From NCBI GenBank assembly GCA_014896535.1, contig JADBKE010000007.1:4358-68357 (forward strand): a DNA stretch of 64,000 nucleotides. The letters run 5' to 3'. Origin of the DNA: Candidatus Fermentithermobacillaceae bacterium. GTDB lineage: Bacteria; Bacillota; Sulfobacillia; Fermentithermobacillales; DUSS01. The notes under the pieces were generated by a model. The model searched no databases. It was not told the origin of the DNA and saw only the letters and a program-made list of their open reading frames with translations. The position numbers were made by a program, and so were the translations under genes. Every line of letters begins with the position of its first letter. The first letter of the stretch is position 1. This document shows, piece by piece, positions 4,595-44,282 of this stretch.

Positions 4595-4907
4595 GTGACC
4601 TGTGCCTCCTCGAGCTGGCCCATCGAAACTGAGTTACGCAGACGGACTATCCAGGTCGCAAAAACATGTCGTCCTTATCTCGTCGGTCTGGCCCATCAAA
4701 CCCAAGGCTTGGTCTATCGCACCGGATTTTGGAGAGCAGACTGCGGTGAGACAAACCGCCTTGACCAGTCCGAGTTCGGCAAAGATGGGCCACTCAGGCT
4801 GGCTTAACTGCGAGTAGCATGTAACCGGAAGGACCATTCTGACGGGATCTACTGTCTTATCCCATGAACTCGCCAGCGCAACAAAGAACGCCCTCTCCTG
4901 GTCATGA

Positions 4908-5465
4908 TTACCCATGGTGATGGCCTCCCGCGGTCAAGCTCCTCTTCTCAGGAAAGAGCACCCGCCAGTCACGCCTGCATAGCGACAACACCAAGGGGAC
5001 ACCAACAAGCTGGATTATCACGCCGGGAAGGGACTGGCCGATAGCTCCGACCAACGGTGCCCACAACGGGACCTTCTCAAAACCGAAGAGGGGCAAGACC
5101 AAGTAGCCCAGAATACCATACGCCACTCGCCCGCCGATCATGGCGCCGATGAGTGAAACATACCCTCCAAGATGAAGCTTTTCGTATAGAAGTCCAGTTA
5201 GAAGCCCATACAGTGCCAATTCGAAAACCATCATCTGCGCCACAGGCGGCATGAGGGGCGGCATGCCGGTTAGAAACGCGCTGAGTAGCGGACTTACCAT
5301 GCCGACCAACATACCTACTACCGGCCCGCAGAAGAACCCGGCCAGCAATACCGGGATATGCATCGGCAAGAACACCTTCCCCAGCCCAACCGCATGGAAC
5401 ATCATGGGTAAAAGAATTGCCAGTGCGATGAATAACGCACCAAACGCCAATTTCCTCGTAGTCAT
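4908..5465 (-). CDS. integral membrane protein, ECF-transporter S-component-like
   Basis: Very hydrophobic ORF with 5-6 predicted TM helices, ~185 aa from internal start MTTRKLAFGALFIALAILLP. Size and topology fit energy-coupling-factor substrate-capture components, but the family is not certain. Confidence 0.4.
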   Translation of the reverse strand: MTTRKLAFGALFIALAILLPMMFHAVGLGKVFLPMHIPVLLAGFFCGPVVGMLVGMVSPLLSAFLTGMPPLMPPVAQMMVFELALYGLLTGLLYEKLHLGGYVSLIGAMIGGRVAYGILGYLVLPLFGFEKVPLWAPLVGAIGQSLPGVIIQLVGVPLVLSLCRRDWRVLFPEKRSLTAGGHHHG

Positions 5466-5857
5466 CCGCAACCACCAATCGTCAGCGCCGTCAGAGGGTC
5501 CGGCTTGACCAGTCCGAGCTTGGCAAACAGGGGCCCGAGAGCCCAAAATAACGCCGCAATTACCGCCCATGAAAACCACGACATACGGAAATTACCTCCC
5601 GCACTCAATATTGGCCCCCTGAAGCCACCAAATGCTTCCCGGAGTCACAAAATGCCTCCTGAGGTCAGCAAATAACCGCCGAAGTCAGGAACATTTCCTG
5701 AACTCGGTTGATGTGCTCGGAGAAAGCTCAATTCCTCATGGCCCTTCCACTGGGGAATTTCCGGGACCAGCGTAACCGCAAGCGATATGCACTGTTGAGC
5801 GAACCGGCGTTCCTCGTCAAATCCCGCCGGGACACCGGTTACCACGCTACGCTCCAG

Positions 5858-6436
5858 CTAACGGCCCCTATCGAAATAGATGCTCTTTCCCGTCGCGCTC
5901 AACGGAATCCCGACCACGATCTCGTCGTCGCACAGCCCCATCCTCTTCGCCACCACTCCGACCCTGTACATGACGCGGTTGTCTACGTTCAGCATCGAAG
6001 CGGTCTTAACTGCAGATCCCACTGCAATACCGAGATCGAGCAGCCGCCAGGCGCATACCGGCCCATCGAACTCCGTACCCTTGCGCATCTCGAGTTCCGC
6101 GCAAGTGTTGTAGCCGCAGGCGCCGCAGTTCAGTCCCGCCGTCTCTGCATCCTTGAGACCGATCAAAACCACCGCACCGGAGTTCCTTACGTTTTCACCG
6201 TCCCTGTCGAAGTTCTTCTTACCGGAAGCGTGCCCGTACGCGATCATCTCGTCTGCAAGCCGGTTCAGTATCTCGCCCGAGAGTATCCTTGTGCTGACAT
6301 AGTCCTTGCCCGCTGCCTTCGGTGCGGTCCTTGCAGACAGACACATGAGTTGTGCCGCCATGAGCAGGCCCTGGGTTTCTCCAGGATCTTTGTGCATTGA
6401 ATTCCCTGCCTTCCCACAAGATGTCCAGGTATTCAT
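5858..6436 (-). CDS. DUF2148-like ferredoxin-domain protein (hypothetical)
   Basis: 192-aa ORF with Cys cluster GLNCGACGYNTCAE. The antisense 230-aa ORF on + looks like a GC artefact (R/H-rich). Confidence 0.4.
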   Translation of the reverse strand: MNTWTSCGKAGNSMHKDPGETQGLLMAAQLMCLSARTAPKAAGKDYVSTRILSGEILNRLADEMIAYGHASGKKNFDRDGENVRNSGAVVLIGLKDAETAGLNCGACGYNTCAELEMRKGTEFDGPVCAWRLLDLGIAVGSAVKTASMLNVDNRVMYRVGVVAKRMGLCDDEIVVGIPLSATGKSIYFDRGR

Positions 6437-6627
6437 GATGTTTAGGTATTTTGCTTTCAGTAATTCGCTGCAACGAAAGGCTGCTCCTACTTGCCGTTGG
6501 CACGAGCAGTCTCACCGACACAACGCATATGGCGTCCTCCCAGGCACGGGAGTCCATGTGCCTGGCGACCCGCCCCAAATGCATCTACTGAGCTCGGGAA
6601 GTACCTCCCGACGCAGCCTCGTACGGC

Positions 6628-7893
6628 TCAGCTCCGTGAGAAGAAATCCAGGCAGACCTGGACAAACACAGCCGCCCCTATATGAAGCACGCTTTCGTCT
6701 ATGTCAAACTTGGGATGGTGATGGGGGTACACTATGCCCTTCTCCGGGTTGCCAGAACCGACGCCGAAGAACGTCCCCGGAACTCTTTGCAGATAGAAGG
6801 CCATGTCTTCGCCTCCCATAACGGGCTCAATGCTGCAGACGTTTTCGGGCCCCACCACTTTGGCAGCGGATTCGGCGACGAGGCTAGTCACACCCTCGTG
6901 GTTTACGACGGGTGGGTACCCGTAGTGGTAGTTCACAGCGGCCTCCGCCCTCATGCCCGAGGCTATGCTGGTAGCTATCTGACGAATCCGGTCGGCTATA
7001 AAATTGCCGAGCTTTGTGTCGAGGTACCTTACCGTGCCCTGCATCAGACACGTCTCCGGAATAATGTTGTGGGCAGTTCCCGCATGGATGGTTCCTACGG
7101 TCAAAACCGCCGGGCTCAGCGGATTGATTTCCCTGGATACGACGGTCTGTAGTGCCGCACATATGTGACATGCCACTACTACCGGATCTACCGACATGTG
7201 CGGAGCGGCGCCGTGCCCGCCGCGACCCCTGACACCTATCTCGAACCGGTCGCTAGCAGCCATCAGCGGGCCTGCCTTAACCCCGACCTGACCCCTGGCG
7301 AGTTTCCACAGAACTCCGAGATGTGCCCCGACTATCGCGTCAACGGGGGGATCGTCCAGGGCTCCATCTTCTATCATGAGCCGGGCCCCACCGGCTCCCT
7401 CCTCACCCGGCTGGAAGATGAACTTGACGTTTCCCGGAAGCTGATCTCTCATCCGCGACAGGACCGTTGCAGCCCCAAGAAGCATAGCAATATGTCCATC
7501 GTGGCCGCACGCGTGCATGGCACCGGGAATCTTCGACGCATAAGGCAAACCTGTTTCCTCCTGGATGGGGAGAGCGTCCATATCTGCACGGAGGGCTATG
7601 GTCTTGCGGGCACCGCCTTCGGCGCCGGAGCCACGTTCGACCTCTTTTCCGTGTTTCGTGCCCCTCAGCAGGCCCACAACTCCCCAGCCACCTACCCTCT
7701 CCCGCACCTCGATCCCCAGGTCGGACATAACGCGGGCCACGAGCTCCGCTGTCCTCGGGACCTCCAGGCCGATTTCTGGGTACTGGTGGACCAGACGACG
7801 CCACTGGATTATGTCTTTCTCAATCGCTTTACAAGCTTGCAAGACATCCATATAGGCACCTCCAAGAGCTCCGGGACAGGTGGGATGCGGCAC
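6628..7893 (-). CDS. M20 family amidohydrolase (aminoacylase/hippurate-hydrolase type)
   Basis: 421 aa. Metal-binding motifs ACGHDGH, FQPGEEGAGGA and GRGGHGAAPH are typical of peptidase family M20D. Start is likely the internal Met near 7851. Confidence 0.8.
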   Translation of the reverse strand: MPHPTCPGALGGAYMDVLQACKAIEKDIIQWRRLVHQYPEIGLEVPRTAELVARVMSDLGIEVRERVGGWGVVGLLRGTKHGKEVERGSGAEGGARKTIALRADMDALPIQEETGLPYASKIPGAMHACGHDGHIAMLLGAATVLSRMRDQLPGNVKFIFQPGEEGAGGARLMIEDGALDDPPVDAIVGAHLGVLWKLARGQVGVKAGPLMAASDRFEIGVRGRGGHGAAPHMSVDPVVVACHICAALQTVVSREINPLSPAVLTVGTIHAGTAHNIIPETCLMQGTVRYLDTKLGNFIADRIRQIATSIASGMRAEAAVNYHYGYPPVVNHEGVTSLVAESAAKVVGPENVCSIEPVMGGEDMAFYLQRVPGTFFGVGSGNPEKGIVYPHHHPKFDIDESVLHIGAAVFVQVCLDFFSRS

Positions 7894-11650: not shown

Positions 11651-11893
11651 CCCCGGGAGCGCCTCGTTTAACTCGTGCGGAACGAAGTAATTAAGGTATT
11701 AGATGATTTAACCCCTTAAACATCGTCACCTGTATTATGGGACGTCTACACCTGGGGGTCAACTACTGCTGCCGTTGGCTGACCCAAAACTTGAAAAGTA
11801 CCGCCATGGCTAGCTTTCGACTCCGTGGGGGCGACGATGCTCTTCCAACTGGTCTCGGCGAGGTGCAAGCGTGGGAGCATCATCCTGACCTGA

Positions 11894-12049
11894 AACAAAG
11901 CATTCGGGGAGTGGGGTGAGATCTTCGGGGACACCGTAATGGCGACCGCGATCCTCGACCGGCTCTTGGATCATTTACATATCATTAACATCCGGGGCGA
12001 GAGCCGGCGGTTGCGGGAAAAGAAGCGTGCCCCCATAATCGAGGTTTCC
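11894..12049 (+). pseudogene. IS21-family IstB helper ATPase, C-terminal fragment only
   Basis: Open frame translates to ...FGEWGEIFGDTVMATAILDRLLDHLHIINIRGESRRLREKKRAP*, matching the conserved IstB C-terminus (EIFGD..ATAxLDRLLHH..I...GESYRL). No Walker motifs or upstream portion are present. Confidence 0.55.
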
Positions 12050-12060
12050 GCTGAAACAAC

Positions 12061-12365
12061 CTAGGTCGCTACGCGTCCGGAGCCGCAGGCTGCGGAAATG
12101 GCTGAGACATACCCCGGTCGAAGGGCCGAACTTGTCGGCGCCGAGCACTCCGCACAGGAATCTCTACGAGCAGCGACTACCTTCCCGCCATGGATCATTC
12201 CTGCTAATCCCCTCGATCGGTGGATTTCAGCAGCCTTACCCGCCGGCAATGTCACACCGCTATCGCACAGCTCAAGCGCACAGCGTAGAAAACTCTTCGG
12301 TCGGCGACCTCGCGGCATAAGCCCTGACAGCTAACCTCAGTTAGGTCCCGGGGTCGTGGCAGCAC
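12061..12365. repeat. ~300-bp conserved element, copy 1 (orphan CRISPR-leader-like sequence)
   Basis: Shares long blocks with 41658-41990, which is the leader of the large array: ctgcggaaatggctg, cttcccgccatNgatcattcctgctNatcccctc, cgcacagcNcaag.gcNcagcgtNgaaaactcNtcgg, gccctgacNgc..cctNagtta. It is preceded by a degenerate repeat-end-like ...ccgctgaaacaac. Confidence 0.5.
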
Positions 12366-12468
12366 CGTCCTTTCCTCACGCCTACTGCTGTGATAATGGG
12401 GCCGGTGGCGAGCCAATGAAGCACCGTCTCTCCCCCTGTGTACCAAACGGATGCCTCCGCTGCGAGAA

Positions 12469-13287
12469 CTAGAACGTCCAGGTTTCGCTTTCGCCGCAAC
12501 CAATCTCATCATCTGTTACAGCGAACATATGCTTCTGCTTACCGCTGGCACGAGCACCGTATCCTAAGTCAACCTTTACAATTGTGCCGGCGATCTCGCG
12601 GACAGCCGTTTCTTCGGCCGTTTGCCGTCTGGGAATGACATACTCCAAATCTCTATTCGCCGACAAAGACGCCGCAAGAGCTAAACCTATGCTCATGGAT
12701 TTGGTACCGCCGGTGTAGTCAGCGATGATCTCGTGTTCCCTCAGTCCGTACTTTGTCCTGGCTTCCTCGTAAATGTCGCGTACTTTTCTGAAAACCTCAG
12801 CCGGGTCGTAGGGGTTCCGGATGTCAACTTTGTGGAACTCGATACCAGTATCCTGATACTTGTTCCTTATTGCGTCAAAAACCTGGGAAGGGCCTTGTGG
12901 CTGGGAACTCGTTCCCACTAACAACCAGCAGTGTTTTAACGTTTTCTCGTGGTACTTTATGGCCACCTCAGCACTGGCCTCTGCGCCAACGCTCAGTATA
13001 GCGATCAGGCCCTTACGCGGCGTCGCCTCTTTCTCGCCGGATTCGGATCTTACCACCAGGCTAGCCCTGGCCCTTTCACTAGCAAGCTCCGCGAGCCGCC
13101 AGGTTATGAGGAGCGAGCCGATAACACCAAGCACCAAAGGCCCCATTTGCATCCACCGGCTACTTTGACTCCAGTAATCGGCTATCGAGTTCGAACCCAC
13201 ATTCTGGACGATTCCCCATAGGCACAAGATAACGAACCAAATGGCTTGTGACAGCTTGGGGAGCAATCTCATGAACCTGCCTCCCAA
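12469..13287 (-). CDS. membrane-anchored CARF-domain protein (Cam1-like, two N-terminal TM helices + CARF)
   Basis: 272 aa with two hydrophobic helices (AIWFVILCLWGIV, PLVLGVIGSLLITW) followed by a Rossmann-like domain. The domain carries the CARF signature DYTGGTKSMSIGLALAA and no recognisable enzymatic effector domain. Confidence 0.55.
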   Translation of the reverse strand: MGGRFMRLLPKLSQAIWFVILCLWGIVQNVGSNSIADYWSQSSRWMQMGPLVLGVIGSLLITWRLAELASERARASLVVRSESGEKEATPRKGLIAILSVGAEASAEVAIKYHEKTLKHCWLLVGTSSQPQGPSQVFDAIRNKYQDTGIEFHKVDIRNPYDPAEVFRKVRDIYEEARTKYGLREHEIIADYTGGTKSMSIGLALAASLSANRDLEYVIPRRQTAEETAVREIAGTIVKVDLGYGARASGKQKHMFAVTDDEIGCGESETWTF

Positions 13288-13372
13288 CCTCCTAACTGTT
13301 AGCCCCGGTCGCTGATTGGTAAGCTACGCTGCCAGCGTCGGCAGGCACTAACCCTGCTCGACGCGCAAATCC

Positions 13373-13792
13373 TCAGCCGCGAGTCTCCGTCAGGATCTCG
13401 GCGATCGTGCGCAAACTCTCGCGCGTGATGATATCCCTTATGCCGTATTCCCGCGCCCGATCTCGAAAGCTGACCGGAATCTCCTTTTCCGGCAGGCTCG
13501 AAACGAAGCACATTCGAGCGAACAACCCCACCCTCTGACGCAGCGCCTGAAGCTTATTCAAGGTTTCCTGACCACCGGGGTCGCCGGACTTGCATTCCAC
13601 GACAACGAACCGACCCCAGCCTGTCGCGGCAACGTCAAGTTCGTTTTCAAGGCCAGCGAGTTTCACATGCCACAAAACGTGGGCAAATCTCCTTTTCTGG
13701 CCCGGGGAGCTCTTACCCAAGAGATGATAGTCTAGAGGGATCGTCGACCTCTGGTGACCGCACCAGACGAACCTCAGTAAGAGCAAGACCAT
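13373..13792 (-). CDS. small PD-(D/E)xK (restriction-endonuclease-fold) nuclease-like protein
   Basis: 139 aa with the motif LENELDVAATGWGRFVVVECKSG (D...ExK). Sits immediately upstream of the TM-CARF gene and downstream of csx1, all on one strand. Confidence 0.45.
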   Translation of the reverse strand: MVLLLLRFVWCGHQRSTIPLDYHLLGKSSPGQKRRFAHVLWHVKLAGLENELDVAATGWGRFVVVECKSGDPGGQETLNKLQALRQRVGLFARMCFVSSLPEKEIPVSFRDRAREYGIRDIITRESLRTIAEILTETRG

Positions 13793-14154
13793 CCTGAGAA
13801 CACGGGATGATGTTCTGCATCCGCTGCTCGCTGAAAGTCGGAGGCCTCCTTATATGTGTAAACGCTGCCGTGCCGGACCTAGAGCGTTTGTCGGTTCAGC
13901 CATCTCCTTCCTTTGAGTGCCAGGGTAGCAACCTTCTTCGGCCGCGACATAGCAACCGTGCTCGTGCCAGTTTCTGCCCGCCGGGCCAGCATGGAGCACC
14001 ACCTGCAGCAACTCTCAGTCGCCGCTCGGGTTTTCCGGTCAGGACGATGGTCAGTCGCAGGGGATAACGGCCCTATTGCTAGACTCATCGGAAGCTTGCC
14101 GATTCTCCCCGTTCGTCCTTCTTTCTTACGCCCGAAGAACGTGTCCTGTGTTCG

Positions 14155-15516
14155 TCACGCACCCTGTGCCCCAGGCACCAAAAGCTTCTTCATACCCGCA
14201 ACTATCTTCGACATCCTTTTCCGTATGGATTCAGGCTCTGTGGGTCGGTCATTCATAGCGCAGTGAGCAACGTCGTTTCGCAACTGGCCTAGCTGCATCC
14301 ATAGCTTCACGATTTCATCTTTTTCCCGCAGCGCCTCTAACCGGTCGAGTATGTCCTCCTGACACTGGGCTTCTGGGCCCATGTTGCTGGAACGGGACGA
14401 GCTGACACGGGCACTGCAAGGCTCCCCCTGCTCGTTACGCTCCGCTGCTTTCGCTTTCTCGTTGAGGCGGAAGGCCACCACTTTTTCCCGCAAGTTCCGG
14501 TCAAGCCAGCGGCTGTGTTGTCCTGTCCGCCAGACCACCCAATTGATGAGCCACTCCCGGCCAAGCAACACCGCTTGTACGGTCAGATCCTTGTTAAGGT
14601 AGTATTCGATCAAGGCGAGTTGCCGCTGAAGGTGCTCGTCGTCAAGCGCAGACGCATTGGGTATCGCCAGCGGGCGGATTTCGTCTGTGAGGTCGGAAAG
14701 AACCAGACCGAAAGGCTTTGCCCAACGCGTAACCTCGTCTCGCACTTGGTCCGAGGCGCGCAGGATGTCGTGGGCCGCCTCGAGGGCGTCCAAAGGTCTT
14801 AATAAACGCACAGCCTCAGAAAAGGTTTTTATTGACCGAGCCATGCTCTGCAGACGGGCCCATCCCGCACGGTCCCGGTCTTCGCCGGACAGCCAGCCTC
14901 TGCGGTGGGCTTGATCCAACAAAAAAGCTAGCTTGCTGCCTTCGCTACGGACTTGGAATTCTTCGACCGCATGTAACCAGTCGTTCAGACTAACCAACAG
15001 CGTCAGGTCGAAGACAGGAGCCCTCGGCAAACCATTTGGTCCGGGCTGCCGGGCGTCAAACGCACCATACAGGATGCGCTCGAGACTGACCCCTTTTGTC
15101 ACCCGAAGATAGTTGATGACACCGAAAATCACAAACGGCAGGGACCTAAAACCGTGAGTTACATCGAACACAACCCGTGAGCCCTGAGGCACGGCTTGGG
15201 AAACTCTTTCGAAGATATCCCATAGCTCCGCATCGTTCTGCCCGGTCGGGATCAATATAGTTTCCAAGCGGTCACCTAATTGCTCCGATATCCGATGATA
15301 ATTATCGCTCTGGCTGGCTTCCCTAGTGACCATGAGTATGAGCTTGCAGGGTTCGAAGAAAAAGTCAATCGCGAGCGGGAACAGCGACGTCTGGTAGACA
15401 CGAGTTTCGGACGCCTCATGCAAGCAATACTCAACCACCTCGTATTCATTGGGACCGACGGTGCTTACCGCTATAAGCGGCGCCGCCTTCTGCCCTTGGC
15501 CAGGCATGGGGTACAC
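14155..15516 (-). CDS. csx1: Csx1-family CARF-HEPN ribonuclease
   Basis: 453 aa with an N-terminal CARF-like Rossmann domain (VFDVTHGFRSLP) and a C-terminal HEPN Rx4H motif (RNDVAH). Adjacent to the cmr genes. Confidence 0.75.
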   Translation of the reverse strand: MYPMPGQGQKAAPLIAVSTVGPNEYEVVEYCLHEASETRVYQTSLFPLAIDFFFEPCKLILMVTREASQSDNYHRISEQLGDRLETILIPTGQNDAELWDIFERVSQAVPQGSRVVFDVTHGFRSLPFVIFGVINYLRVTKGVSLERILYGAFDARQPGPNGLPRAPVFDLTLLVSLNDWLHAVEEFQVRSEGSKLAFLLDQAHRRGWLSGEDRDRAGWARLQSMARSIKTFSEAVRLLRPLDALEAAHDILRASDQVRDEVTRWAKPFGLVLSDLTDEIRPLAIPNASALDDEHLQRQLALIEYYLNKDLTVQAVLLGREWLINWVVWRTGQHSRWLDRNLREKVVAFRLNEKAKAAERNEQGEPCSARVSSSRSSNMGPEAQCQEDILDRLEALREKDEIVKLWMQLGQLRNDVAHCAMNDRPTEPESIRKRMSKIVAGMKKLLVPGAQGA

Positions 15517-15548
15517 CCCCTATGGCTCGTAACTCCAGAGATGCGGAC

Positions 15549-16559
15549 TCAGGCCTGGATGCTCGCAAGCAGCTCCTTGTACCACTCTTGATCCCGCCAG
15601 TTCCTCTCCTTACCGGCCTCTTTTACCTTCTCAAGGATGGCCTCAGCCAGGCACCGTTTGTCGCCGGGACTTGCCTCCACATTCCGCCATTGCTCGTAGA
15701 ACCAGCGAATGCGCCCTGGAACTTCGGACGTTTTCAACACCCGCAGCTGCCTCAAAAGCTGGGCCACTTTTGGATCCTCCCCAGCGGATGCTGGCTTTTC
15801 TTCTATTTCCACCACAGCCAGCTTGCCGTACCCACTTGAGGTTTTCGCTCCGACCCCGATGTGCTTGAGTGCTTGCGTCATCAAATCAAATGTCGCGTCA
15901 ACCCATCGTGGCGGACCCGCCAGTGCAAGCAGGTACCTCCCTGTCGCGGACAAGAATGGAACGGGGTTGGGGTTGTCCCAATCAGCGGGGGGCTTGCCGC
16001 CGTCACCGTAATAATCTTTGTGATGTACGGTGACAACGTCGGAATACAGAAGCCGCGAGTCCGGCAGCGGCATCGCATCGAAAAACGTCACGTATCCGGC
16101 CGTGTCAGTATCGCCGAAGACCACTTCGTAAGGCCCAACACAATGCTGGTCCGAGCGCTGACCACTTGGTTGCCATTCGTCCTGAAGGTACTCGCGAACG
16201 AATCTAGCGGTCACTCCTTTAAGAGCAGTGCCAGGAATGTAAGGAACCCCAAAGACGCGATGGAGCGTTACGGAGGTCTCGAGCACGCTCTCGTTGCCCA
16301 AACCAACTATCATCCGCCCCATAACCGAAGCTACCTTGCATACCGCCCCATAGTCGCGCAGCATTTTTCGCCAAAGCTCAAACCAATGAGCGTACGTCTC
16401 AGGTACCGGAATCTCCGAAACCTCGTCAACCAGGTTACGCTTGCTGCTCGTGTCACCCGGGTACTGGTTTTCAATAAACTTGTCCAGCCAGAGCCCCGCG
16501 TTTGACGCCAACTTATGTGGGTTTTTCCACCCGGCAAGGCAAGCTCGTCTTGTGCTCAT
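15549..16559 (-). CDS. cmr6: Cmr6 (type III-B Cas7-family RAMP)
   Basis: N-terminal NAGLWLDKF and glycine-rich GVPYIPGTALKGVTR motifs are typical of Cmr6. It is the last gene of the cmr operon. Confidence 0.8.
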   Translation of the reverse strand: MSTRRACLAGWKNPHKLASNAGLWLDKFIENQYPGDTSSKRNLVDEVSEIPVPETYAHWFELWRKMLRDYGAVCKVASVMGRMIVGLGNESVLETSVTLHRVFGVPYIPGTALKGVTARFVREYLQDEWQPSGQRSDQHCVGPYEVVFGDTDTAGYVTFFDAMPLPDSRLLYSDVVTVHHKDYYGDGGKPPADWDNPNPVPFLSATGRYLLALAGPPRWVDATFDLMTQALKHIGVGAKTSSGYGKLAVVEIEEKPASAGEDPKVAQLLRQLRVLKTSEVPGRIRWFYEQWRNVEASPGDKRCLAEAILEKVKEAGKERNWRDQEWYKELLASIQA

Positions 16560-16993
16560 AGCTCTCCCCCCACGTCGGCGTCCTGCTCTACGCCGAGGAC
16601 AGACTGAGCAAACCGCTTGTACCAGACAAGCGCGGCCAATACCCTCCTCGACAGATGCATATATTCCTCGAGGTCCGCCTTGCGGCTGCGGTCAATAAGC
16701 TTTTCCCGGTTTTCCAGGCCGACTACGCCAGCAATATGCTCGAGCAGTGCCTTCCCGGCATCACCCCCGCGTGCGTCAACGAAGGCCAACGCCTGGGCTA
16801 GTCCCGCCGTGCGTATGAGTACAGGTAACTTGTGTGCCAGTGAGCCGTATTTGTCGCAATAGTCTTCATTTATGATGTTACTGACCTGCTTGTAGATGTG
16901 CAGAGCGTACTCCTGGTTACGTGTCCGCACGGGCCATCCCTCCCACGAGCGTAAGCCTGCATAAGCCATGGCCGACTGTGGCCTTGCCGCCAA
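16556..16993 (-). CDS. cmr5: Cmr5 (Cas11 small subunit, type III-B)
   Basis: 145-aa alpha-helical protein lying between cmr4 and cmr6. Start likely at the internal Met. Confidence 0.6.
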   Translation of the reverse strand: MAARPQSAMAYAGLRSWEGWPVRTRNQEYALHIYKQVSNIINEDYCDKYGSLAHKLPVLIRTAGLAQALAFVDARGGDAGKALLEHIAGVVGLENREKLIDRSRKADLEEYMHLSRRVLAALVWYKRFAQSVLGVEQDADVGGEL

Positions 16994-17798
16994 TCTGCAG
17001 AGGTTTCTCGATCAGGCGGGCCAGAGTCCGGAATACTTCGTCGGGTTTTGCCATCACGGGAATCGCCGCTACCAAACCGTACAGGATTGTCTCGGCCGGC
17101 AGCATTTCTTCGTACCACAGCCCACCCCTCTCCACGGTCTTGGACTGCTCCTGCAGCCTGATTCTCGCCACTACCTCGGTAGCTGTGTCGAGCAAGAAAC
17201 TCATCACGTCGTCATCAACTATGCAAAACCGCCCCGTAAGCGTCTCCTGCCAGTACGCATCGCCGGGGAATACTTGCTTACCGACCCACTCGGCCCATGC
17301 CCGAGCATCGTCTGTGACAGCTGCCCGCAGGTCAAGGTCTTCTAAAATGACCTGTCCGTTGTGAACAATCGGGGCTTTTTCTTGAGAAACGATGCACATC
17401 CTTCGTTCGCCGGGCGATGGTACGTCTGCGGGGATTCCGGTAATTCCTGCGGCCTGCGCATCGCGGACAAGTCGCCGCAAGATAAACGGAGAGGTGACCC
17501 ACGCAAACGTCCCGATGAGGCTTCGTACCGGCATTAGCAAGAGCCGTTGGTCGGATACTTGAATCGAGCCTGCGTGCTCGTGCGCATAGTCCGTGTCCGG
17601 ACCGAACACCCTTTTCCGTAGGTCCTTGTCATCACAGGCATCCCGCAGAACGCCTTTGAGCGATGAACCGGGCAGGTATGGAATACCGGTTGACTTTTCT
17701 CGCGCAACAGGTAGGTCTATCACTCCCGTACCCTGCCCGGTACCCGGGTGCAGGGGCGACAAAGCATGTACAAAGAGAAGACGGGCGTTCACCACCAT
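16917..17798 (-). CDS. cmr4: Cmr4 (type III-B Cas7 backbone subunit)
   Basis: SPLHPGTGQGTGVIDLPVAREKSTGIPYLPGSSLKGVLRDA is the canonical Cmr4 N-terminal motif. Confidence 0.85.
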   Translation of the reverse strand: MVVNARLLFVHALSPLHPGTGQGTGVIDLPVAREKSTGIPYLPGSSLKGVLRDACDDKDLRKRVFGPDTDYAHEHAGSIQVSDQRLLLMPVRSLIGTFAWVTSPFILRRLVRDAQAAGITGIPADVPSPGERRMCIVSQEKAPIVHNGQVILEDLDLRAAVTDDARAWAEWVGKQVFPGDAYWQETLTGRFCIVDDDVMSFLLDTATEVVARIRLQEQSKTVERGGLWYEEMLPAETILYGLVAAIPVMAKPDEVFRTLARLIEKPLQIGGKATVGHGLCRLTLVGGMARADT

Positions 17799-17808
17799 GA
17801 CCTCCTCG

Positions 17809-19086
17809 TTAAAGAGTTTCTAGGAAAGCATCTAGAATGTCTTTCTTACCGCGTAGCGGCCGTATCATTTTGGCCTCTTCCGGAGTGAGAAGCGCCTCGA
17901 CAGGCACGTAGGGGAGCTTATCCAGCACAAGGTCGCCGGGGGGAAGGCCCGTGCCGTCGAGGACAATAGCCACCCCGACACCTCGGTCTCCGTCGCAAGC
18001 CAACGGGCGAAGTATCAACGGGCTAGCCAGCCGCTCGTAGTTCCTACCTCGTAAGATCACATCTTGTAGATTCTGGCCTCTGAAATGAAACACGATGGGC
18101 AGCCCAAATGCCGCCCTGGGGACTTTGATGACTGCTGGGGTACTCTTCGGCGGCGCTCCGGACGTCACAGCACGTATAGCACTTGCCTCCGGCCAGTCGC
18201 TCCGGCCGCGGCCCGAACGACCTCCCCGGCTCTGGCGAAATTCCCTAAGACGTGAAATAAGGTGTTCCCACGCCTCCCATGCGCTCGGTTTCGCACCGGT
18301 GATCCTCATCCTCGGTGTCGACGAGAGGTGCGGCACACCGCTTGGCCACTTGAGTGTGCCCGAAGCTTTCGGCTCGGTGCAATCGAGGTGCTCAGCGAGC
18401 TTTTGCCTAATCCAATTTTCGACGTCGCGAGGGTCGGGGAGCTTCACAGGGCAACGGTCCACGGCTACGAGTTTCAGCGCCCCGAACCCGCGCCGGGTCC
18501 GGGCACCAACGCCCCCGAAGGTTTCCCACGCCCAGAGCGCAGCCTCCACGTCTTCACTGATACGTTCGGGATAGGTGAGGGTGAGTTCGAAACTTACACC
18601 CACCCTGACCTTTCGCGCAAGCTGTCGACCCTGTGACTGCAGGGGAAAGGCAACATACGCGATGTTTTCCCAACCCTTAGCGGCCCTATTACGCGAGACA
18701 AATATCTCTTTATCCTCGCCCGCGTTTATCACCCGCACCGTAATCTGAACGTTCGAGGGGAACCCTTTCCGATCCGTTCCAGTAGTCCCCCATATCTCAT
18801 CCTCCCTCTTTTTCATCTCCGCCAGACTTCCGTTGAATCTCCCACCCCTGGTCGCCCGCCACCAAAACCGTAGCTGTCCCCGTATTTCCGTACCGCGAAC
18901 AGGCATAACGGGGTCCGGTACACCTGGCTCCACACCGCCTCCGAAAAGAGGCGTAATCAGTTCGTACTCCCGAACTTGCGTGGTCAACGCAACCTGCTCG
19001 GTGCCTACCCTACGCCGGCCCAAATGTGGGGTAACGGGCGGCGGAATGATCTCCCGGCCGCATTCGTCAGCAGGTATCTTCCTCAT
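17809..19086 (-). CDS. cmr1: Cmr1 (type III-B RAMP with two RRM domains)
   Basis: ITPLFGGG, IRGQLRFWWRA and G-rich loop GGVGARTRRGFGAL, followed by a second RAMP-like half (AAFGLPIVFHFRGQ). Its position between cmr3 and cmr4 is atypical. Confidence 0.6.
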   Translation of the reverse strand: MRKIPADECGREIIPPPVTPHLGRRRVGTEQVALTTQVREYELITPLFGGGVEPGVPDPVMPVRGTEIRGQLRFWWRATRGGRFNGSLAEMKKREDEIWGTTGTDRKGFPSNVQITVRVINAGEDKEIFVSRNRAAKGWENIAYVAFPLQSQGRQLARKVRVGVSFELTLTYPERISEDVEAALWAWETFGGVGARTRRGFGALKLVAVDRCPVKLPDPRDVENWIRQKLAEHLDCTEPKASGTLKWPSGVPHLSSTPRMRITGAKPSAWEAWEHLISRLREFRQSRGGRSGRGRSDWPEASAIRAVTSGAPPKSTPAVIKVPRAAFGLPIVFHFRGQNLQDVILRGRNYERLASPLILRPLACDGDRGVGVAIVLDGTGLPPGDLVLDKLPYVPVEALLTPEEAKMIRPLRGKKDILDAFLETL

Positions 19087-19092
19087 CCATCC

Positions 19093-20262
19093 CTACACCT
19101 CCAGGCGATGAAGCGTCCCATCCCAGACGCCCGCAGCAGCAAGACCGAATCCGTCCCGACGATCTTGGTCTTCATCGCTTACGCAACGCATCCACACGTT
19201 TTCGACCCAGGTCCGTATCGAAGTAGACTCGCCGTGAAGGCTCAGAAAGAACACAGTACCCGCCGGGACGAGGCGACGGGTCGGTTTGGCCTCCCCTTTC
19301 TCAACGTCCCACCCGGATACCACCTGGGGCCCGCGGAGCGCCAAAGCTCGAAGACATGGCGTTACTCCGAAGCGCGATGATAAGAGCCAAAAAGGTTTCC
19401 ACCCTTCCCTGAAATACGCCGGGGTGAGAAGTACCACCCGGCAGTGTCTCTGTGCCGCAATTTCGTCCTTCAATTCGCTGGGAAGGGGTGGGAGATCCCT
19501 TTTGCTTCTCCTCCAAAAAACCAGGCGCCCCTCGCCACCCAAACGCGAGACTCCCGGTTTGAGCTTGTTAGCATCGGTGGCGACTACCAGAGCCAAGCGC
19601 CGCGCGCCTCGGAGCGAGGGCTTCGCCCGCACGTAAGTAAACTCAAGTCCACGGGTTTGAAACAAAGCTCCGTTCTCCTCGTCAGCGGTGAGGGTGTCGG
19701 GTCTTATTCCTACGTGCATCCTCGATTCTGCTCCCGGGCCGTCAAAGCCAATATTGGCAACCACGTCCTCCACTTCCCGGGGCTCAATGAGCCACCGTTC
19801 GAACGAGCGCCACGACCAGAACCGGGGAGCTCTTTCATAACTCTTCCGTGGGTCCCGAACCGATAATCCAACAGGGACCAAACCGTCGGGAAGAGTGGTC
19901 TCGGTCCCTGGGGGCAGTTGGAGCGGAACACAGGGTCGTATCACAACCTTGCCAGGAGCAGACTCCGCCGCCTCAAACAGCACAGCGTCGGCCGGGGCGG
20001 GAGCGTACCAATCCGCGACGTCCCCGTCATCGTCGAGTTCAACCAGGAGTGGCCCACGGACTTCCAACTGCTTCACTCTGGGGATTTCGGACTTTGCAAA
20101 GGCACCGCACGCGTCAAGACCATCCCGCGTCCGGACAGCGCCTGCGATCGTCGAGGGAAAGGGGAACGGCAGTGACAACGCCCGTGCCCCCGGTGTACGG
20201 CCGAACGGTCGACCATCCCGAAAGATAACCGGGTCTCGCGGTTCTATCACCCACACATTCAT
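19093..20262 (-). CDS. cmr3: Cmr3 (type III-B Cas5-family subunit)
   Basis: N-terminal IEPRDPVIFRDGRPFG is a Cmr3 hallmark. Lies immediately downstream of cas10. Confidence 0.8.
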   Translation of the reverse strand: MNVWVIEPRDPVIFRDGRPFGRTPGARALSLPFPFPSTIAGAVRTRDGLDACGAFAKSEIPRVKQLEVRGPLLVELDDDGDVADWYAPAPADAVLFEAAESAPGKVVIRPCVPLQLPPGTETTLPDGLVPVGLSVRDPRKSYERAPRFWSWRSFERWLIEPREVEDVVANIGFDGPGAESRMHVGIRPDTLTADEENGALFQTRGLEFTYVRAKPSLRGARRLALVVATDANKLKPGVSRLGGEGRLVFWRRSKRDLPPLPSELKDEIAAQRHCRVVLLTPAYFREGWKPFWLLSSRFGVTPCLRALALRGPQVVSGWDVEKGEAKPTRRLVPAGTVFFLSLHGESTSIRTWVENVWMRCVSDEDQDRRDGFGLAAAGVWDGTLHRLEV

Positions 20263-22112
20263 GCTGGTTTCACCTCCCGACTCGGTTCGGCAGGAAAAGA
20301 TCTACCGGCGAGATCTGCCGCCTTTGCGAACTCGCGAGCAATAATGATTTCGTCGGCAATCTGTCCGATGACTTGGGCTGGTTCTTCGCCGTCTGAAAGG
20401 GCGTTTCTGATCTCGGTCAGCAGTTTGTTGAGCGTCTCCCCGGCAATTGGCTCTAAGCCATGCCGCTGTCGTTTGCGGCTGATGATGCGCTCTACTTCAA
20501 ACTTTAGGACTTCCTTCACTTGCTTCACATTTTCACTCGACTTGGTCTCCCCCTGCGAGTCCTTAAACTGCATGGCCAAATCGCGCAATTCATAAGCCGC
20601 ACCGTCGGGAAGTGCGTCAGCTTGATGGAGAAATGCAAACCACTCGAGGCGACGGTCAAGCTCCCCCCAGCGACCCCTCACCGTTCTGTCCGCCCCGCTC
20701 CGCTTACTCAGGGTGATGCCGAGTGCGTTCTTGCCCTTTATCGACTTGGCCGCCCTTTCGGCATCCCGAGCCAGTTGGATGACGTCGGACAACGGTGCCA
20801 GGTGATGAGCAATGGCGATACCGACCGAGAGCGTGGGTGTGATTGTTTCGTTGTCCTGTACGACGCTAAAGTCTCTTAGCAAGCTGCCAAACGTTTCGGC
20901 GAGCGACCTTGCACAGTCCAGGACGGTATGTAGGGGAACGAACGCCAGAACATCGTCGCCTCCCGAATATACGAGCGAGCCATTGTGCTTTTCCACTATC
21001 TTTTTGGCTTCGCGGGCAAACCGACTTTGACAACTGGAAAGGTTCCGGTGTGCTTCGCAGGTCTTTTGGGCATCGATGACCTTGCCCATGTAGTCGCCAT
21101 CCGCGAGCAGAAGCGCGTAGTAAGGCAACGGTTCTCGCTCCCCGCAAGCGTCTTTCAAGAAGCTACGTAGCGCCTGTCTGGCCTTGGCAAACTTCTCTTT
21201 TTCGGGGAAGTACTCTCGCAAGCGTTGCTCAAAGAGTAGTTCTCCGTCGTTGCTGCCAAAGACAGGGTGCGGAGGTTGCACCGTCCCAAGAGCGTCTTCC
21301 AGGATACCAAGCGTTTTTAGCTCTTCGATATACCTCTTAACTAAAGGCACATCCTTGCTCTGAAGCCTATCCAGCAGCGGAAGCGCTGCCACATGCGACG
21401 TACTCAAGAAGTGTTCCTTCGCCTCGCGCCTACCGTGGCGCTTAAGCAGGCACACCCCACATAGGTGCTCACCACGCCGCACCCCATAGTCTCGGCGGAG
21501 TCTCTCATCGTGGTTCTCTCCCCGTTCGTCTTCTGTCGCGTGCGCTTTCGCTGGAATAACCGACTCCCGAATCCCGTCCAACGAGCACTTTGGTGCACTC
21601 CTTCCCCAGGAAACCGGGCCAAACTCTCGCGTCAGCTTCCGTGCGCTCAGCGCGGCCTCCGCGAGCTTTCGCGCCAGATCGTAATCGCTATCCCCGGTCA
21701 AAGTCGAAGCCGCCCAGTAAAACTCAATCAAGTCGTCCACCTGCTTCTCGGCGACGTCACGGGCGAAACTCCCTTTCACCTGGCAGTACGCTTCGTCTCG
21801 TAACTTGTGAAGTCGCTCGAGGATGGCGTTGTACACCGCGTCGGCGAGTTCCCGCGGGTCCTGTTTTATAAGCGCCACGATCTTGTTGGCAACGTTAAAC
21901 TCCTCGGACTCTAGGTCCTCAGGGCCGGCCGGTGCCGGAAACACTAGGCACCTAATATCTCCACCGTTTATCTTCACGATCTTCAGGGCCGCGGCTTTAG
22001 CCAATTCGCTTAGCATCCACGAGCCAAACCAGAGGTCCCGACTACGTCGTGCCGTCGCGATGAATTCCTGAACTGGCCCTATGTGAAAAATGACGAGCTT
22101 CGTCCCGCCCAT
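20259..22112 (-). CDS. cas10: Cas10/Cmr2 lacking HD domain, cyclase palm with GGDD motif
   Basis: 617 aa with N-terminus VIFHIGPVQEFIATARRSRDLWFGSWMLSEL (Cmr2dHD-type). Palm motifs LLLADGDYMG and YSGGDDVLAF are intact, and there is no HD signature. Confidence 0.85.
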   Translation of the reverse strand: MGGTKLVIFHIGPVQEFIATARRSRDLWFGSWMLSELAKAAALKIVKINGGDIRCLVFPAPAGPEDLESEEFNVANKIVALIKQDPRELADAVYNAILERLHKLRDEAYCQVKGSFARDVAEKQVDDLIEFYWAASTLTGDSDYDLARKLAEAALSARKLTREFGPVSWGRSAPKCSLDGIRESVIPAKAHATEDERGENHDERLRRDYGVRRGEHLCGVCLLKRHGRREAKEHFLSTSHVAALPLLDRLQSKDVPLVKRYIEELKTLGILEDALGTVQPPHPVFGSNDGELLFEQRLREYFPEKEKFAKARQALRSFLKDACGEREPLPYYALLLADGDYMGKVIDAQKTCEAHRNLSSCQSRFAREAKKIVEKHNGSLVYSGGDDVLAFVPLHTVLDCARSLAETFGSLLRDFSVVQDNETITPTLSVGIAIAHHLAPLSDVIQLARDAERAAKSIKGKNALGITLSKRSGADRTVRGRWGELDRRLEWFAFLHQADALPDGAAYELRDLAMQFKDSQGETKSSENVKQVKEVLKFEVERIISRKRQRHGLEPIAGETLNKLLTEIRNALSDGEEPAQVIGQIADEIIIAREFAKAADLAGRSFPAEPSREVKPA

Positions 22113-23123: not shown

Positions 23124-23234
23124 CTCTCAGTTCCCCCTGGCTAGCGGTTCTGACTGCAACATCAATGAGGTAATCAAGCAATGCAAGACTTACGAAGCTT
23201 TCAGTCCCCTCTACCTCGGGGTTCTCGCTGCCTT
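23124..23234. CRISPR. two degenerate CRISPR repeats (trailer-end remnant of the large array)
   Basis: 23124-23160 ctctcagttccccctggctagcggttctgactgcaac and 23198-23234 ctttcagtcccctctacctcggggttctcgctgccttg are separated by a 37-nt spacer. Both have the same length and register as the array repeat, with several mismatches. Confidence 0.6.
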
Positions 23235-23354
23235 GTCACCTTGCACATTAATCTTCCGGGTTTAGCAGTTCCCTCTGTCACATTACTCTAGAATCTTGCC
23301 AATCCCTCTCTCGAGCAAAGTGATAATTTCTTTTCAGTTTGCTGTGGGAGGAGA

Positions 23355-23705
23355 ATGGCTGTGCAAATTCTCTGGAGGGCGCCAATCTCGCTTGAGGAGT
23401 ATGCTTCCCTGGGGAGGGCAGCAGAGTTCCCGGTTCCCAGGGAATGTGCTGCCTGCGGAAGGAAAGTGAGCCTGAAGCGCCACGGGTGGTGTCGGAGGTA
23501 CGCGGTGAGGCAGGACATCGAAGTACAGGTCTGGATTCCGAGGCTTCTGTGCCCTGCGTGCGGCAGGACTATTTCGCTTCTACCCTCGTTCCTCCTCCCC
23601 CGGTTTCAGCGGACGGTGGAATTCATCGTCAAGGTGCTTGGAAAGAACGTCTCATGCTCAAGGTGTACCGTCTCACGTTTTCCTGACCGAGTTGTCTCAG
23701 ATTGA
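23355..23705 (+). CDS. transposase-associated zinc-ribbon protein (truncated paralogue of 26389-26916)
   Basis: CxxCG...C..C pattern and the LPSFLLPRFQRT motif are shared with the 175-aa ORF at 26389-26916 (LPWFLAPHRP...). Confidence 0.45.
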   Translation: MAVQILWRAPISLEEYASLGRAAEFPVPRECAACGRKVSLKRHGWCRRYAVRQDIEVQVWIPRLLCPACGRTISLLPSFLLPRFQRTVEFIVKVLGKNVSCSRCTVSRFPDRVVSD

Positions 23706-23768
23706 GATGACTTTTGCGTGACACAAAGAAGGCTGCCCTGGAAGGAGCGGCAGCCGCCGGGTTAGGTT

Positions 23769-24581
23769 TCAGTTCCCGTTCAAATCCTGGATCACCCTGA
23801 GCACCAGCTTCTGGTCGATGAGTTCTTTCTGCTCGATGAAAGCGGCCAGGAGTGAATTGGCGCACACGTGGTTAATGCGCCTGGGGATGCCGCGGGCGTA
23901 CTGGAAGATCTCCTCGATGGCCTCCGGGGTGAACAGGGGCGAGGTACGGCCTGCCACTTTGAGGTGATGGGCGATGTACTCCCTGGTTTCCGGGGCGGTG
24001 AGTCCCCGCATGTGGTACCGCACCATGAGCCGCTGGGTGATGTGGTCGTAGCAGGAAAGCCGGAGTCTGTCCCGGAGTGGGGTTTGTCCCACGAGGATGA
24101 GCGCCATGGGACATGCGCTGTCCATGTCGAAATTGGTGAGCAGCCTCAGTTCTTGGAGGCTGGTCTCTGGTAGCAGGTGGGCGTCGTCGATCACGACCAC
24201 CGGGGTCTTTCCTTGCTCGAACACGGCCCACAGGGTATCGGCGAGCTGCTTCACGGTGTCCGATTTGTGGTAACGGGGCTCCACGCCGAGGCCCAGGAGC
24301 AGTTGGCGGTAAAGCCCCCGAGCGGGGAGCAGGGGATTAGACAAGGTACAACCAGCGTGACCTGAGTGGGTCCAGGGAGGCACGCAGGGCTCGCAGGCAA
24401 GTAGACTTTGCCCGAGCCCACGTCCCCTGTTAGGAGGGCCATGCCCCTCTGCATGACGGCCCAGTTCAGGCGGGCCAGCGCCTCGAGGTGGTCCTGGGAA
24501 GGAAAGAGTTGGTCCGGAGGAAGGTCCCGGCCAAATGGGGTGCGGGTGAAGTTGAAGAAAGCTCTCGTACATGCTATTCAC
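23769..24581 (-). pseudogene. TniB/ExeA-like AAA+ transposition ATPase, frameshifted
   Basis: The C-terminal two-thirds align with the intact paralogue at 28143-28943 (VVIDDAHLLP, ALILVGQTPLRDRLRL). The Walker A motif (LLTGDVGSGKV) is encoded in a different frame (24251-24454). Confidence 0.6.
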
Positions 24582-26364
24582 CTCCGTGTGCGTTTTCTGA
24601 TTTCCTCAAGGTAAGCCGAGATGTGCCGACCGGTGCCCAGGTGTCGGCAGGCATGTTCCAGGGCTTCCCGGCAGAGATCGATGTCCAGGGGGCCGTACGT
24701 GGCCCAGAACTCGCGGGCCTCCCTGGTTTCGGCTTCGGTGAGGTTGCGCCCCAGGCCCAGGTGCAGGAGAGCAAGGAACGGGGCCACTCCACCCGTGGCC
24801 CCGGGAAGCGAAGGTTTTGGGCAGTTCGGAAAAACGCAGGCGCTCGATTTCCTCGGCGAGGCGGTGGTCGTGCTGGGAGCGCAGGAGTTTGAGGTAACTC
24901 ATGCTGAAGCCAGGCGGGTGCAGGGGCTGTCTCGGTGCTGCGCGAAAGGGATGTCTTGTTCAGGGTTAGAGGGACCGCCACCTGGTAGAAGCGACCATCA
25001 ACCCACACTTCCACGCGGGTGAGGTCGAAGGGGTCGTAGCGCACCTCGACCTTCTGCCGGTCCCTGAGTTCGGGGTCCACCTGGTAGCGGTTGCTGCCTA
25101 TACGTATGGTGGCGTCCTTCCTCACCGTGCGGGTGTCTCGGGTGAGGAAGAGGTTGGCCAAAGCCACGGGGTCGGGAAGTTTGGGTGGCTTGCGGAAGTA
25201 GCGGTCGCGGGGAGGCTCGCCCGTCTCCGAGTGGGGCCTTCGATGGTAGTCCTCCTCCAACCAGGCCCAGAAGTAAGCGTTGGCCTCTTCCACGGTCTTC
25301 ACCTCTTCCCTGGCTACCAGCAGGCGAAGTTCCGGGTAGACCTCGTTCTGCACGGTCTGGTTGAACCGCTCTACCTTGCCGCGGGCGGCGGGGTTTTTCC
25401 TGCGGCCCAGGATGACCTGGATGCCGAGGGCAGCACAAGCGGCGCGGAAGTGTCGCGAAACGTGGATGCCGGCCCGGTCCACGTAGACGGCCTCAGGGAT
25501 GCCGGCCTTGGCCAGGGCCTGGCGCATGCAGTGCTCGAGGCGCGGCATCTTGCCGTCCGGGTAGAACTGGGCGTGGGGGCAGTAGCGGCTGTAGTCGTCG
25601 ATGACGACGAACAGCACGGTTTTGCGAAACTTCCCCGGCCGTCTGGGGTCGGGGAGGAAGATGCCGTCGGCCTGGTCGATCTGCCACAGTTCCCCTGGTT
25701 GTTCCCGCTCGAAGCGCTGATAGACCCGACGCGGGCCCGGCTGTCTGCGGGTGAGGCCGAGGGCGTGGAGGTGCCGGTGCAGGGTAGCCCGGGAGATGGA
25801 CCCCTTTGCCACTCCCGAGTCGGGGTCGGCCTCCAGCATCCGGATGATCTGGGGGATGGAGCGGGCGGGCAACTCCCGCTTGAGCTGGGCGGCCCGCTCG
25901 ATGAGGGCGGGGGTAAGGGCACGCGGTTTTCCCCGGTCCTTCCGGGGTTTGGGCTTGAGTGCCTCGAACCCTCCCTTGCGGTAGCGGGCCAGCCAGGACT
26001 TGAGCGTGGAAACCGACAGACGCACCTTCTCTCCGCCCGGAGCCTCCCATTCCTGGTTGGCCAGGCGCTGCAGGATGCGAGTCTGCTCGCCGCGGGGGAG
26101 TTTCCGCTGCAACAGTTCGGCTATGCACCCGTAGCGGAACAGCGCCACCTCCACCCTGCGGTCCTCGTCGTCCATCTTCTGGCACCTCCCGGCCCCGAGC
26201 GTACTACCCGGGCACCGGGACTGAATACTTCGGGTTGTGTGGGACATGCACCCGGGGACGGTGTTCTTCCTGTTTGTAGCAGCAGAGTCGGAACCCACCC
26301 AGGCATCATATCCTGGAGCAGATGGTTGCTGGTTCGAAAGGCAGCATATGGACGGGAGAGGCAT
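24574..26364 (-). CDS. Mu-like DDE transposase (rve integrase core + Mu-transposase C-terminal domain)
   Basis: 596 aa with an N-terminal HTH region, DDE core (WQIDQAD..., VVIDDYSRY, ...ERFN) and a C-terminal beta-barrel (RYQVDPELRDRQKVEVRYDPFDL). Confidence 0.8.
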   Translation of the reverse strand: MPLPSICCLSNQQPSAPGYDAWVGSDSAATNRKNTVPGCMSHTTRSIQSRCPGSTLGAGRCQKMDDEDRRVEVALFRYGCIAELLQRKLPRGEQTRILQRLANQEWEAPGGEKVRLSVSTLKSWLARYRKGGFEALKPKPRKDRGKPRALTPALIERAAQLKRELPARSIPQIIRMLEADPDSGVAKGSISRATLHRHLHALGLTRRQPGPRRVYQRFEREQPGELWQIDQADGIFLPDPRRPGKFRKTVLFVVIDDYSRYCPHAQFYPDGKMPRLEHCMRQALAKAGIPEAVYVDRAGIHVSRHFRAACAALGIQVILGRRKNPAARGKVERFNQTVQNEVYPELRLLVAREEVKTVEEANAYFWAWLEEDYHRRPHSETGEPPRDRYFRKPPKLPDPVALANLFLTRDTRTVRKDATIRIGSNRYQVDPELRDRQKVEVRYDPFDLTRVEVWVDGRFYQVAVPLTLNKTSLSRSTETAPAPAWLQHELPQTPALPARPPPRRGNRAPAFFRTAQNLRFPGPRVEWPRSLLSCTWAWGATSPKPKPGRPASSGPRTAPWTSISAGKPWNMPADTWAPVGTSRLTLRKSENAHGGE

Positions 26365-26388
26365 GGAGTCTTCCCTGTTCGAGATGGG

Positions 26389-26916
26389 TTACAGCCAGAT
26401 GGGGGTGTCCTCCTCAGCGCTGGCACTGAGGTGGACGTTGCACCACCCGAGCGGCCTTGAGGCGGGGAAATCGAGGTCGGCTTTGACGCGCCGGCAGGCG
26501 AGCCAGAAGGCAATGATGGCCGCGTGGAGGAGTTTCAACTTGTCGCCGGTGAAAGGGCGCAGGAGAGTGTCCAGTTCAAGTTCGGGGTCAAGCCGCCTGG
26601 CATCGCGGGAGAGCATGGCCACGACCCTGTCCGCCAGGTTGCGGATGCGGCGGATCCAGCGCTGGAGGGTGGATGGGGAAACCTGCGTGATGGCGTTGGC
26701 CAACTGGTACCAGGAACATCCCCTGAGGCGGAGGCGGAACGCCCTGTCGACAAGAGCCATCAGGCAGGGCCGGTGAGGTGCGAGGAACCAGGGGAGCACG
26801 GCGTGGGTTCGACGGCATCCGGGGCAGCGCACCCTTCGAACCTTAACACCTATCTTACGCCAGTACCATCCGTGGCCCTGCAGTTTCCGTCCGCACTTCG
26901 GGCACTTGCGGAGCAA
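26389..26916 (-). CDS. transposase-associated zinc-ribbon protein
   Basis: 175 aa starting MLRKCPKCGRKL...RCPGCRRTHAVLPWFLAPH. It is the first gene of the IS unit, followed 25 bp later by the transposase. Confidence 0.5.
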   Translation of the reverse strand: MLRKCPKCGRKLQGHGWYWRKIGVKVRRVRCPGCRRTHAVLPWFLAPHRPCLMALVDRAFRLRLRGCSWYQLANAITQVSPSTLQRWIRRIRNLADRVVAMLSRDARRLDPELELDTLLRPFTGDKLKLLHAAIIAFWLACRRVKADLDFPASRPLGWCNVHLSASAEEDTPIWL

Positions 26917-28139: not shown

Positions 28140-28142
28140 ATC

Positions 28143-44276: not shown

Positions 44277-44282
44277 CAGCTT

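Follow-up and report, generated by a model that had tools for sequence, protein, structure and literature searches.

The stretch of DNA analysed here (the window) is 64 kb long with a G+C content of 57.8%, and its CRISPR-cas genes are encoded on the minus strand. Read in that direction, a type I module (52556 to 42136, from cas3 to csa1) is followed by a leader (42135 to 41657; copy 2), a large CRISPR array, about 6 kb of transposon genes (28943 to 23355), a mini-array remnant (23234 to 23124), a cmr module (22112 to 12469), a second copy of the leader (12468 to 12058; copy 1) and a stub of a CRISPR repeat. Beyond the stub lie an IstB fragment encoded on the opposite strand, a marR gene and an acrB-type pump gene.

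The CRISPR array (29208–41656, minus strand) is composed of 170 repeats of 37 nt, which read GTTGCAGCGAGAACCCCGATGTAGAGGGGACTGAAAG on the minus strand, and 169 spacers of 34–42 nt. The original prediction rightly took copy 2 for the leader of this array, but its count of 170 spacers was that of the repeats. The minus-strand repeat terminates in ...CTGAAAG, and an ending in ...GAAAG is typical of Cas6-processed class 1 repeats. The adaptation genes cas1, cas2, cas4 and csa1 adjoin the 41.6 kb end of the array, while all six variant repeats, which carry a substitution, are found at 29.8–31.9 kb, at the end opposite copy 2. Therefore, the leader lies at the high-coordinate end and the array is transcribed on the minus strand.

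The type I module with its adaptation genes (42136–52556, minus strand; Pfam and NCBIfam matches) reads towards copy 2 and the array. It contains cas3, a gene for the large subunit, cas7, a probable cas5, a cas3 fragment, cas1, cas2, cas4 and csa1. The cas3 fragment is a 209-aa ORF (45599–46228) between the probable cas5 and cas1 and corresponds to the C-terminal part of Cas3. At this place, a contig from another strain (L001, positions 4855–7212; SRR24635346) carries a complete, different cas3 together with a different effector gene set. From cas1 through the leader, this contig and the window are 98.5–100% identical, suggesting a recombinational exchange of the type I effector module. The idea that the working leader is better conserved between strains than its neighbouring genes was rejected, because the identical tract includes all of csa1, which points to a recombination tract.

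The type III-B cmr module and its accessory genes (12469–22112, minus strand; Pfam and NCBIfam matches) comprise cmr2, cmr3, cmr1, cmr4, cmr5 and cmr6, and three accessory genes, one of which encodes a 453-aa CARF/DxTHG protein. The module ends with a gene for a 139-aa fragment limited to a Card1-like nuclease domain (13373–13792) and a gene for a CARF-like protein of 272 aa (12469–13287), whose match to CARF is weak and whose N-terminus is hydrophobic. The nuclease thus precedes the CARF part, the reverse of the order in Card1/Can2. Only four distant homologs of the CARF-like protein (32–35% identity) were found among 5.8 billion proteins. Cmr6 homologs were used to look for a relative with an intact array on the cmr side; the closest Cmr6 outside the source MAG was that of Desulforudis audaxviator (61% identical), whose loci have a different layout and contain neither this leader nor this repeat. 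Copy 1 comes after the CARF-like gene, the last of the cmr module.

Two other features of the neighbourhood were recorded. First, the mini-array remnant (23124–23234, minus strand), located about 1 kb upstream of cmr2, comprises two repeats separated by a 37-nt spacer; one matches at 33/37 positions and has its last bases replaced, and the other is degenerate (27/37). The spacer had no match above chance within the window. Between this remnant and the large array, two inverted transposon gene sets (23355–28943) each encode a DUF6431 protein, an rve/Mu-C transposase and an AAA_22 ATPase, one of the transposases being truncated (284 aa); no convincing inverted-repeat ends were detected for the transposon block at 23235–29207. 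The large array probably once had its trailer end in this mini-array, which about 6 kb of transposon DNA now separates from it. Close relatives of the transposon genes (87–96% protein identity) are present upstream of the type I module in L007, a locus of a related genome described below, with fragments after its array. Second, an 8-nt unit, TGTGACTC, is repeated in tandem at 56749–56914 (about 21 copies, 91% match), upstream of an unannotated 480-aa ORF and a HerA-like helicase gene.

Copy 1 and copy 2 have the same orientation. In a blastn comparison, 12038–12465 aligned with 41637–42078 at 67.8% identity over 444 columns (E ~5e-37), and a MAFFT alignment was also made. With such identity and such an E value, the duplication is real and far beyond chance. 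It had been predicted that an element occurs here twice in the same orientation, with a pairwise alignment of the two copies as a check. The alignment confirmed the homology, but the limits proposed for the element (12061–12365 and 41658–41990) were too short. Within the 64-kb window, blastn detected no third copy. Copy 1 (12058–12468, minus strand) occupies the entire intergenic region from the stop of the CARF-like gene to the repeat remnant. Copy 2 (41657–42135, minus strand) separates the stop of csa1 from the large array, whose first repeat it adjoins, and its homology to copy 1 spans 41657–42078, nearly the whole intergenic region. Since copy 1 follows the CARF-like gene and copy 2 follows csa1, two unrelated genes, the duplication comprises exactly a leader plus the start of a first repeat. 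Copy 2 is identical in two independent Logan assemblies, the contigs of which stop inside the first repeat. A coding origin of the element was rejected, as no frame is open in both copies and the mismatches (45/45/32) show no clear 3-nt periodicity.

Within the distal leader of copy 2, a sequence of about 39 nt is directly repeated (41951–41989 and 42024–42061), with counterparts in copy 1 near 12355–12380 and 12410–12450. The spacing of 72–73 nt equals the period of the repeat-spacer unit of the array, and each unit in copy 2 bears one TATGCTACAYT box. This direct repeat is older than the split of the two leader copies; it may be an old decayed repeat pair or a pair of promoter or operator sites.

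A Cas1-based scan of representative genomes yielded three loci (L006, L007 and L008) from two MAGs of the Fermentithermobacillaceae, the family of the source MAG (a Candidatus Fermentithermobacillaceae bacterium). Both L007 and L008 belong to one MAG (AS04akNAM_61), so that a genome of this family can hold two leader-array loci. The leader homologs of these loci directly abut arrays, with 71 repeats in L007, 37 in L008 and at least 7 in L006, where the contig ends. The register of the leader-repeat junction is identical in all five leaders (copy 1, copy 2, L006, L007 and L008). The comparison of copy 1 with the L007 leader gave an E value of 2e-8, and an nhmmer profile of the proximal part of the five leaders, covering the 230 nt next to the repeat where they share blocks, retrieved each member with E values of 1e-43 to 1e-56 (copy 1: E = 2.4e-52 at 12286–12058). 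The blocks common to the five leaders are GGGGAT.AGCAGGAATGATC, GTCGCC, TGGCGCA.AA, GGCGTCGACAA and GCCATTTCCGCAG. To our knowledge, this leader family has not been described before.

Several further observations concern these relatives. The 37-repeat leader-array locus of MAG AS04akNAM_61 (L008, 10001–11740) lies beside an eroded adaptation module, in which cas1, cas2 and cas4 match partly and csa1 is split over three reading frames. Two Logan contigs (L002 and L005; SRR24392716) were 99.98–100% identical to the window and represent the same strain. Exact look-ups of Cmr6 and Csa1 gave contigs, and those with the copy 1 region were again of the same strain; exact look-ups of the CARF-like, Card1-like, MarR and P0001 proteins gave no contig.

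Blockwise conservation between the two copies might be expected of a structured non-coding or cis-regulatory RNA present in duplicate, an alternative put forward in the original prediction. However, neither copy folded with a lower MFE than its shuffled versions (copy 1, z = +1.56; copy 2, z = −0.36), RNAalifold returned a covariation term of +0.72 over the five leaders with many broken pairs, and no Rfam family reached its gathering score anywhere in the window. The conserved blocks are, moreover, common to leaders that abut arrays. A structured RNA is thus extremely improbable.

The same can be said of the idea that the element is an IS end or a MITE that came to lie beside an array by chance, which had also been raised. 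Although an IS21 fragment adjoins copy 1 and the locus is rich in transposon genes, neither copy is surrounded by terminal inverted repeats or target duplications, there is no IS21 sequence near copy 2, and all homologs found directly precede an array. Further copies at non-CRISPR sites had been named as evidence that would speak against an orphan leader; the nhmmer profile found no leader copy elsewhere in the 253 kb of DNA examined. A 21-nt core of the leader had no match in 185,579 representative genomes, and two matches in JGI metagenomes were dismissed as chance ones, because only the 21-mer agrees. (One of the two, L003 or Ga0137411_1300018, is 5.5 kb long and nearly all self-complementary with nested inverted repeats, and is most likely a hairpin assembly artefact.) Finally, the right end of an IS21 element would follow a complete istB, whereas the istB beside copy 1 is cut before its own stop. 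An origin of the leader as an IS end or MITE therefore has a very slim chance of being correct.

Past the leader-repeat junction, the minus strand of copy 1 reads GTTTCAGCGGAAACCTCGATTATGGGGGC, and its register is that of copy 2 at this junction. In this register, the sequence at 12029–12057 (minus strand) agrees with the repeat at 20 of its first 29 positions (binomial P = 1.4e-6 at a fixed position) and represents a truncated, degenerate first repeat; the stretch beside copy 1 that had earlier been called repeat-end-like is substantiated by this match. The best portion of the stub is 12038–12057, with 16/20 matches. The last 8 nt of the repeat, which form the crRNA handle ACTGAAAG, are replaced by ACGCTTCT in copy 1.

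The stub is joined to a pseudogene fragment of an IS21-family istB (11810–12028, plus strand; 219 nt, about 73 C-terminal codons). Translation of 11798–12061 gave a match to Pfam IstB_IS21 (PF01695) at positions 165–237 of 238 (E = 7.4e-26), so that the suspected IstB C-terminal remnant adjoining copy 1 is real. The fragment contains one in-frame TGA stop and is truncated at both ends. An IS21 element consists of istA and istB between terminal inverted repeats; here, the 219 nt encode the C-terminal part of the IstB ATPase, and istA, the 5′ two thirds of istB (the N-terminal two thirds of the protein), the last codons with the native stop and the IS terminus are all missing. Therefore, the joint is an internal deletion junction and not the insertion end of an IS21 element.

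We considered whether 12029–12064 might be the native tail of istB. In tblastn searches and an alignment, similarity to annotated IstB proteins (from Bacillus cereus and Exiguobacterium plasmids) extends to 'KKRAPI', at about 12037; beyond it, 12038–12057 matches the repeat, and the stop codon of the ORF falls in the leader motif CCTAGG, which is common to copy 1 and L007. The native-tail reading consequently holds for at most 9 nt and was rejected for the remainder. The assignment of 12038–12057 to the repeat is secure, and 12029–12037 could be either repeat or the IstB 'RAPI' tail, which makes the exact breakpoint uncertain within these few nucleotides. The breakpoint lies between 12028 and 12038 and joins the interior of istB to the interior of the first repeat. 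It had been proposed that a second array beside the cmr module was lost through an IS21 event, leaving an orphan leader. The orphan leader at the core of this proposal is supported, but the joint, a deletion joint with no IS end, does not demonstrate an IS21 event. IS21 sequence is present at the lost locus, and the case for a causal role of IS21 is only circumstantial.

Decay of copy 1 was assessed at positions that are invariant in three working loci, with a held-out working locus as the comparison. Of the 22 invariant positions of the repeat, 15 are preserved in copy 1 and all 22 in the held-out working repeat (Fisher's exact test: p = 0.009). In the proximal leader, copy 1 keeps 42/59, against 51/59 in copy 2, a marginal difference (p = 0.07). 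By this sequence measure, decay appears weaker in the leader than in the repeat. Long conserved blocks such as AGCAGGAATGATC and GCCATTTCCGCAG are intact in copy 1, which, together with the marginal p value, makes some residual constraint on copy 1 possible.

The distal leaders differ in promoter-like sequences. TRTGnTAnnnT is the extended −10 motif of Firmicutes type, and a motif scan found only four occurrences on both strands of the 64-kb window, two of them in copy 2. These two are TATGCTACATT (41978–41988, minus strand), 331 nt upstream of the first repeat, and TATGCTACACT (42050–42060, minus strand), 403 nt upstream of it. The motif is also found at −337 in L007 and at −304 in L006, and is absent from copy 1. 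The counterpart of the TATGCTACATT box in copy 1 was removed by a 14-nt deletion after 12377, so that exactly one box is lost there, and the counterpart of the TATGCTACACT box (12438–12448) reads TTTGGTACACA, which no longer fits the motif. A simple sigma-70 promoter scan gave no match in either copy. We infer from the motif that the extended −10-like boxes may be the pre-crRNA promoter of these loci, which offers a testable candidate about 300–400 nt upstream of the first repeat.

These features are best explained if copy 1 is a relic of a second CRISPR locus. We regard it as very probable that this locus once followed the type III-B cmr module directly, likewise on the minus strand, and that the rest of it was lost by deletion, and we predict that the relic is inert. 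The four other members of the leader family abut arrays, copy 1 retains their junction register, its place is the downstream end of the cmr module, and its decay is seen at invariant positions. The orphan leader that had been predicted is thus well supported. The survivors would be the leader (12058–12468) and the first 20–29 nt of the first repeat (from 12029 or 12038 to 12057). The deletion would have taken the remainder of the first repeat and whatever array came next, with one end inside that repeat and the other inside the last codons of an IS21-family istB, which would have been left as the present 73-codon pseudogene fragment. A past array with spacers and the order of the deletions are what we infer from this arrangement. 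No complete array, that is, at least two full repeats and a spacer, follows copy 1, and no other repeat-like sequence with at least 23/37 matches was found near it. Because the stub ends at the IstB fragment and no array comes after it, copy 1 is a former leader and not an acting one.

The predicted inertness of the relic would have three causes. First, Cas1-Cas2 would find no complete repeat to duplicate, and the absence of such a repeat argues against Cas1-Cas2-directed integration at copy 1. Second, Cas6 would find neither the 3′ end of the repeat nor its 8-nt handle to cut. Finally, both extended −10-like boxes of the working leader are deleted or mutated in copy 1.

A different history is that copy 1 is a duplicate of the leader that never headed an array, produced by ectopic recombination from the main locus or brought in with the cmr module. 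Copy 1 and copy 2 are 68% identical in the proximal and 72% in the distal part, and are thus closer to each other than copy 2 is to the L007 leader (65% and 52%), although L007 and the window encode Cas1 and Csa1 proteins that are 93–95% identical. This pattern fits an origin within the genome, and no trace of a spacer is left beside copy 1. (The leader as such, 41657–42135 in the window and 13235–13888 in L007, has diverged much faster than the neighbouring genes.) However, copy 1 stops exactly at the gene and repeat boundaries, like a normal leader, and two leader-array loci in one genome are known in this family from L007 and L008. The stub, moreover, ends at a deletion joint with an IS fragment, indicating that sequence was lost there. 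A duplicate that never headed an array is therefore unlikely.

The position of the relic at a type III locus recalls a recent survey (Shmakov et al. 2023, PMC10120712), in which repeat-like sequences were over-represented at the flanks of type III loci and were interpreted as probably degraded repeats without function. The stub of copy 1 likewise lies at the flank of a type III-B locus and has no detectable target. In contrast to those repeats, it is accompanied by a complete leader of about 410 nt, and its breakpoint could be mapped to the istB joint. The authors' interpretation as degraded repeats (PMC10120712) fits copy 1.

The same survey describes regulatory cr-like RNAs, such as type I mini-arrays and single repeat units that direct effectors to the promoters of cas genes or to cargo genes, and notes that elements of this kind are widespread in CRISPR-cas loci (PMC10120712). 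The stub of copy 1 is also an isolated repeat-like sequence in a CRISPR-cas locus; copy 1 borders a cas operon, and several of the conserved leader blocks persist in it, so that a working standalone repeat has to be weighed. However, the 8-nt 3′ handle is missing (ACGCTTCT instead of ACTGAAAG), the stub differs from the repeat at seven invariant positions, a second repeat is lacking nearby, and the loss of both candidate −10 boxes leaves no plausible promoter. The would-be spacer of 40 nt is IstB pseudogene sequence and has no match longer than 11 nt in the window, which is the chance level, and the survey found neither targets nor positional conservation for such repeats in type III loci (PMC10120712). 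A functional cr-like RNA at this site is accordingly very improbable.

Compared with the leaders of paralogous arrays, copy 1 has the same position, extending from a cas-associated gene to a first repeat, and it shares the junction register and the conserved blocks with four leaders that head arrays. It differs from them in that no array follows, in that the first repeat is cut after 20–29 nt and degenerate, and in the lost −10 boxes. Copy 1 is therefore a case of ordinary erosion of a CRISPR locus and not a new kind of element. There is a small chance that some activity is left in the orphan leader. A leader-recognising factor or Cas1-Cas2 might still attach to intact blocks such as GGGGATTAGCAGGAATGATCCATGGCGGGAAG and CAGCCATTTCCGCAG, in which case copy 1 could act as a decoy or as the seed of a new array, or it might drive read-through transcription, which could enter the downstream marR-acrB genes on the same strand.

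As a relic of a lost locus, copy 1 does not challenge the current understanding of CRISPR loci, and its main value is for annotation. A comparison of the relic with the four working leaders outlines the conserved blocks of this leader family. Copy 1 very probably marks an array lost beside the type III-B module. With that array gone, the cmr module would have none of its own and would have to rely on the array associated with the type I module, 7–19 kb away.
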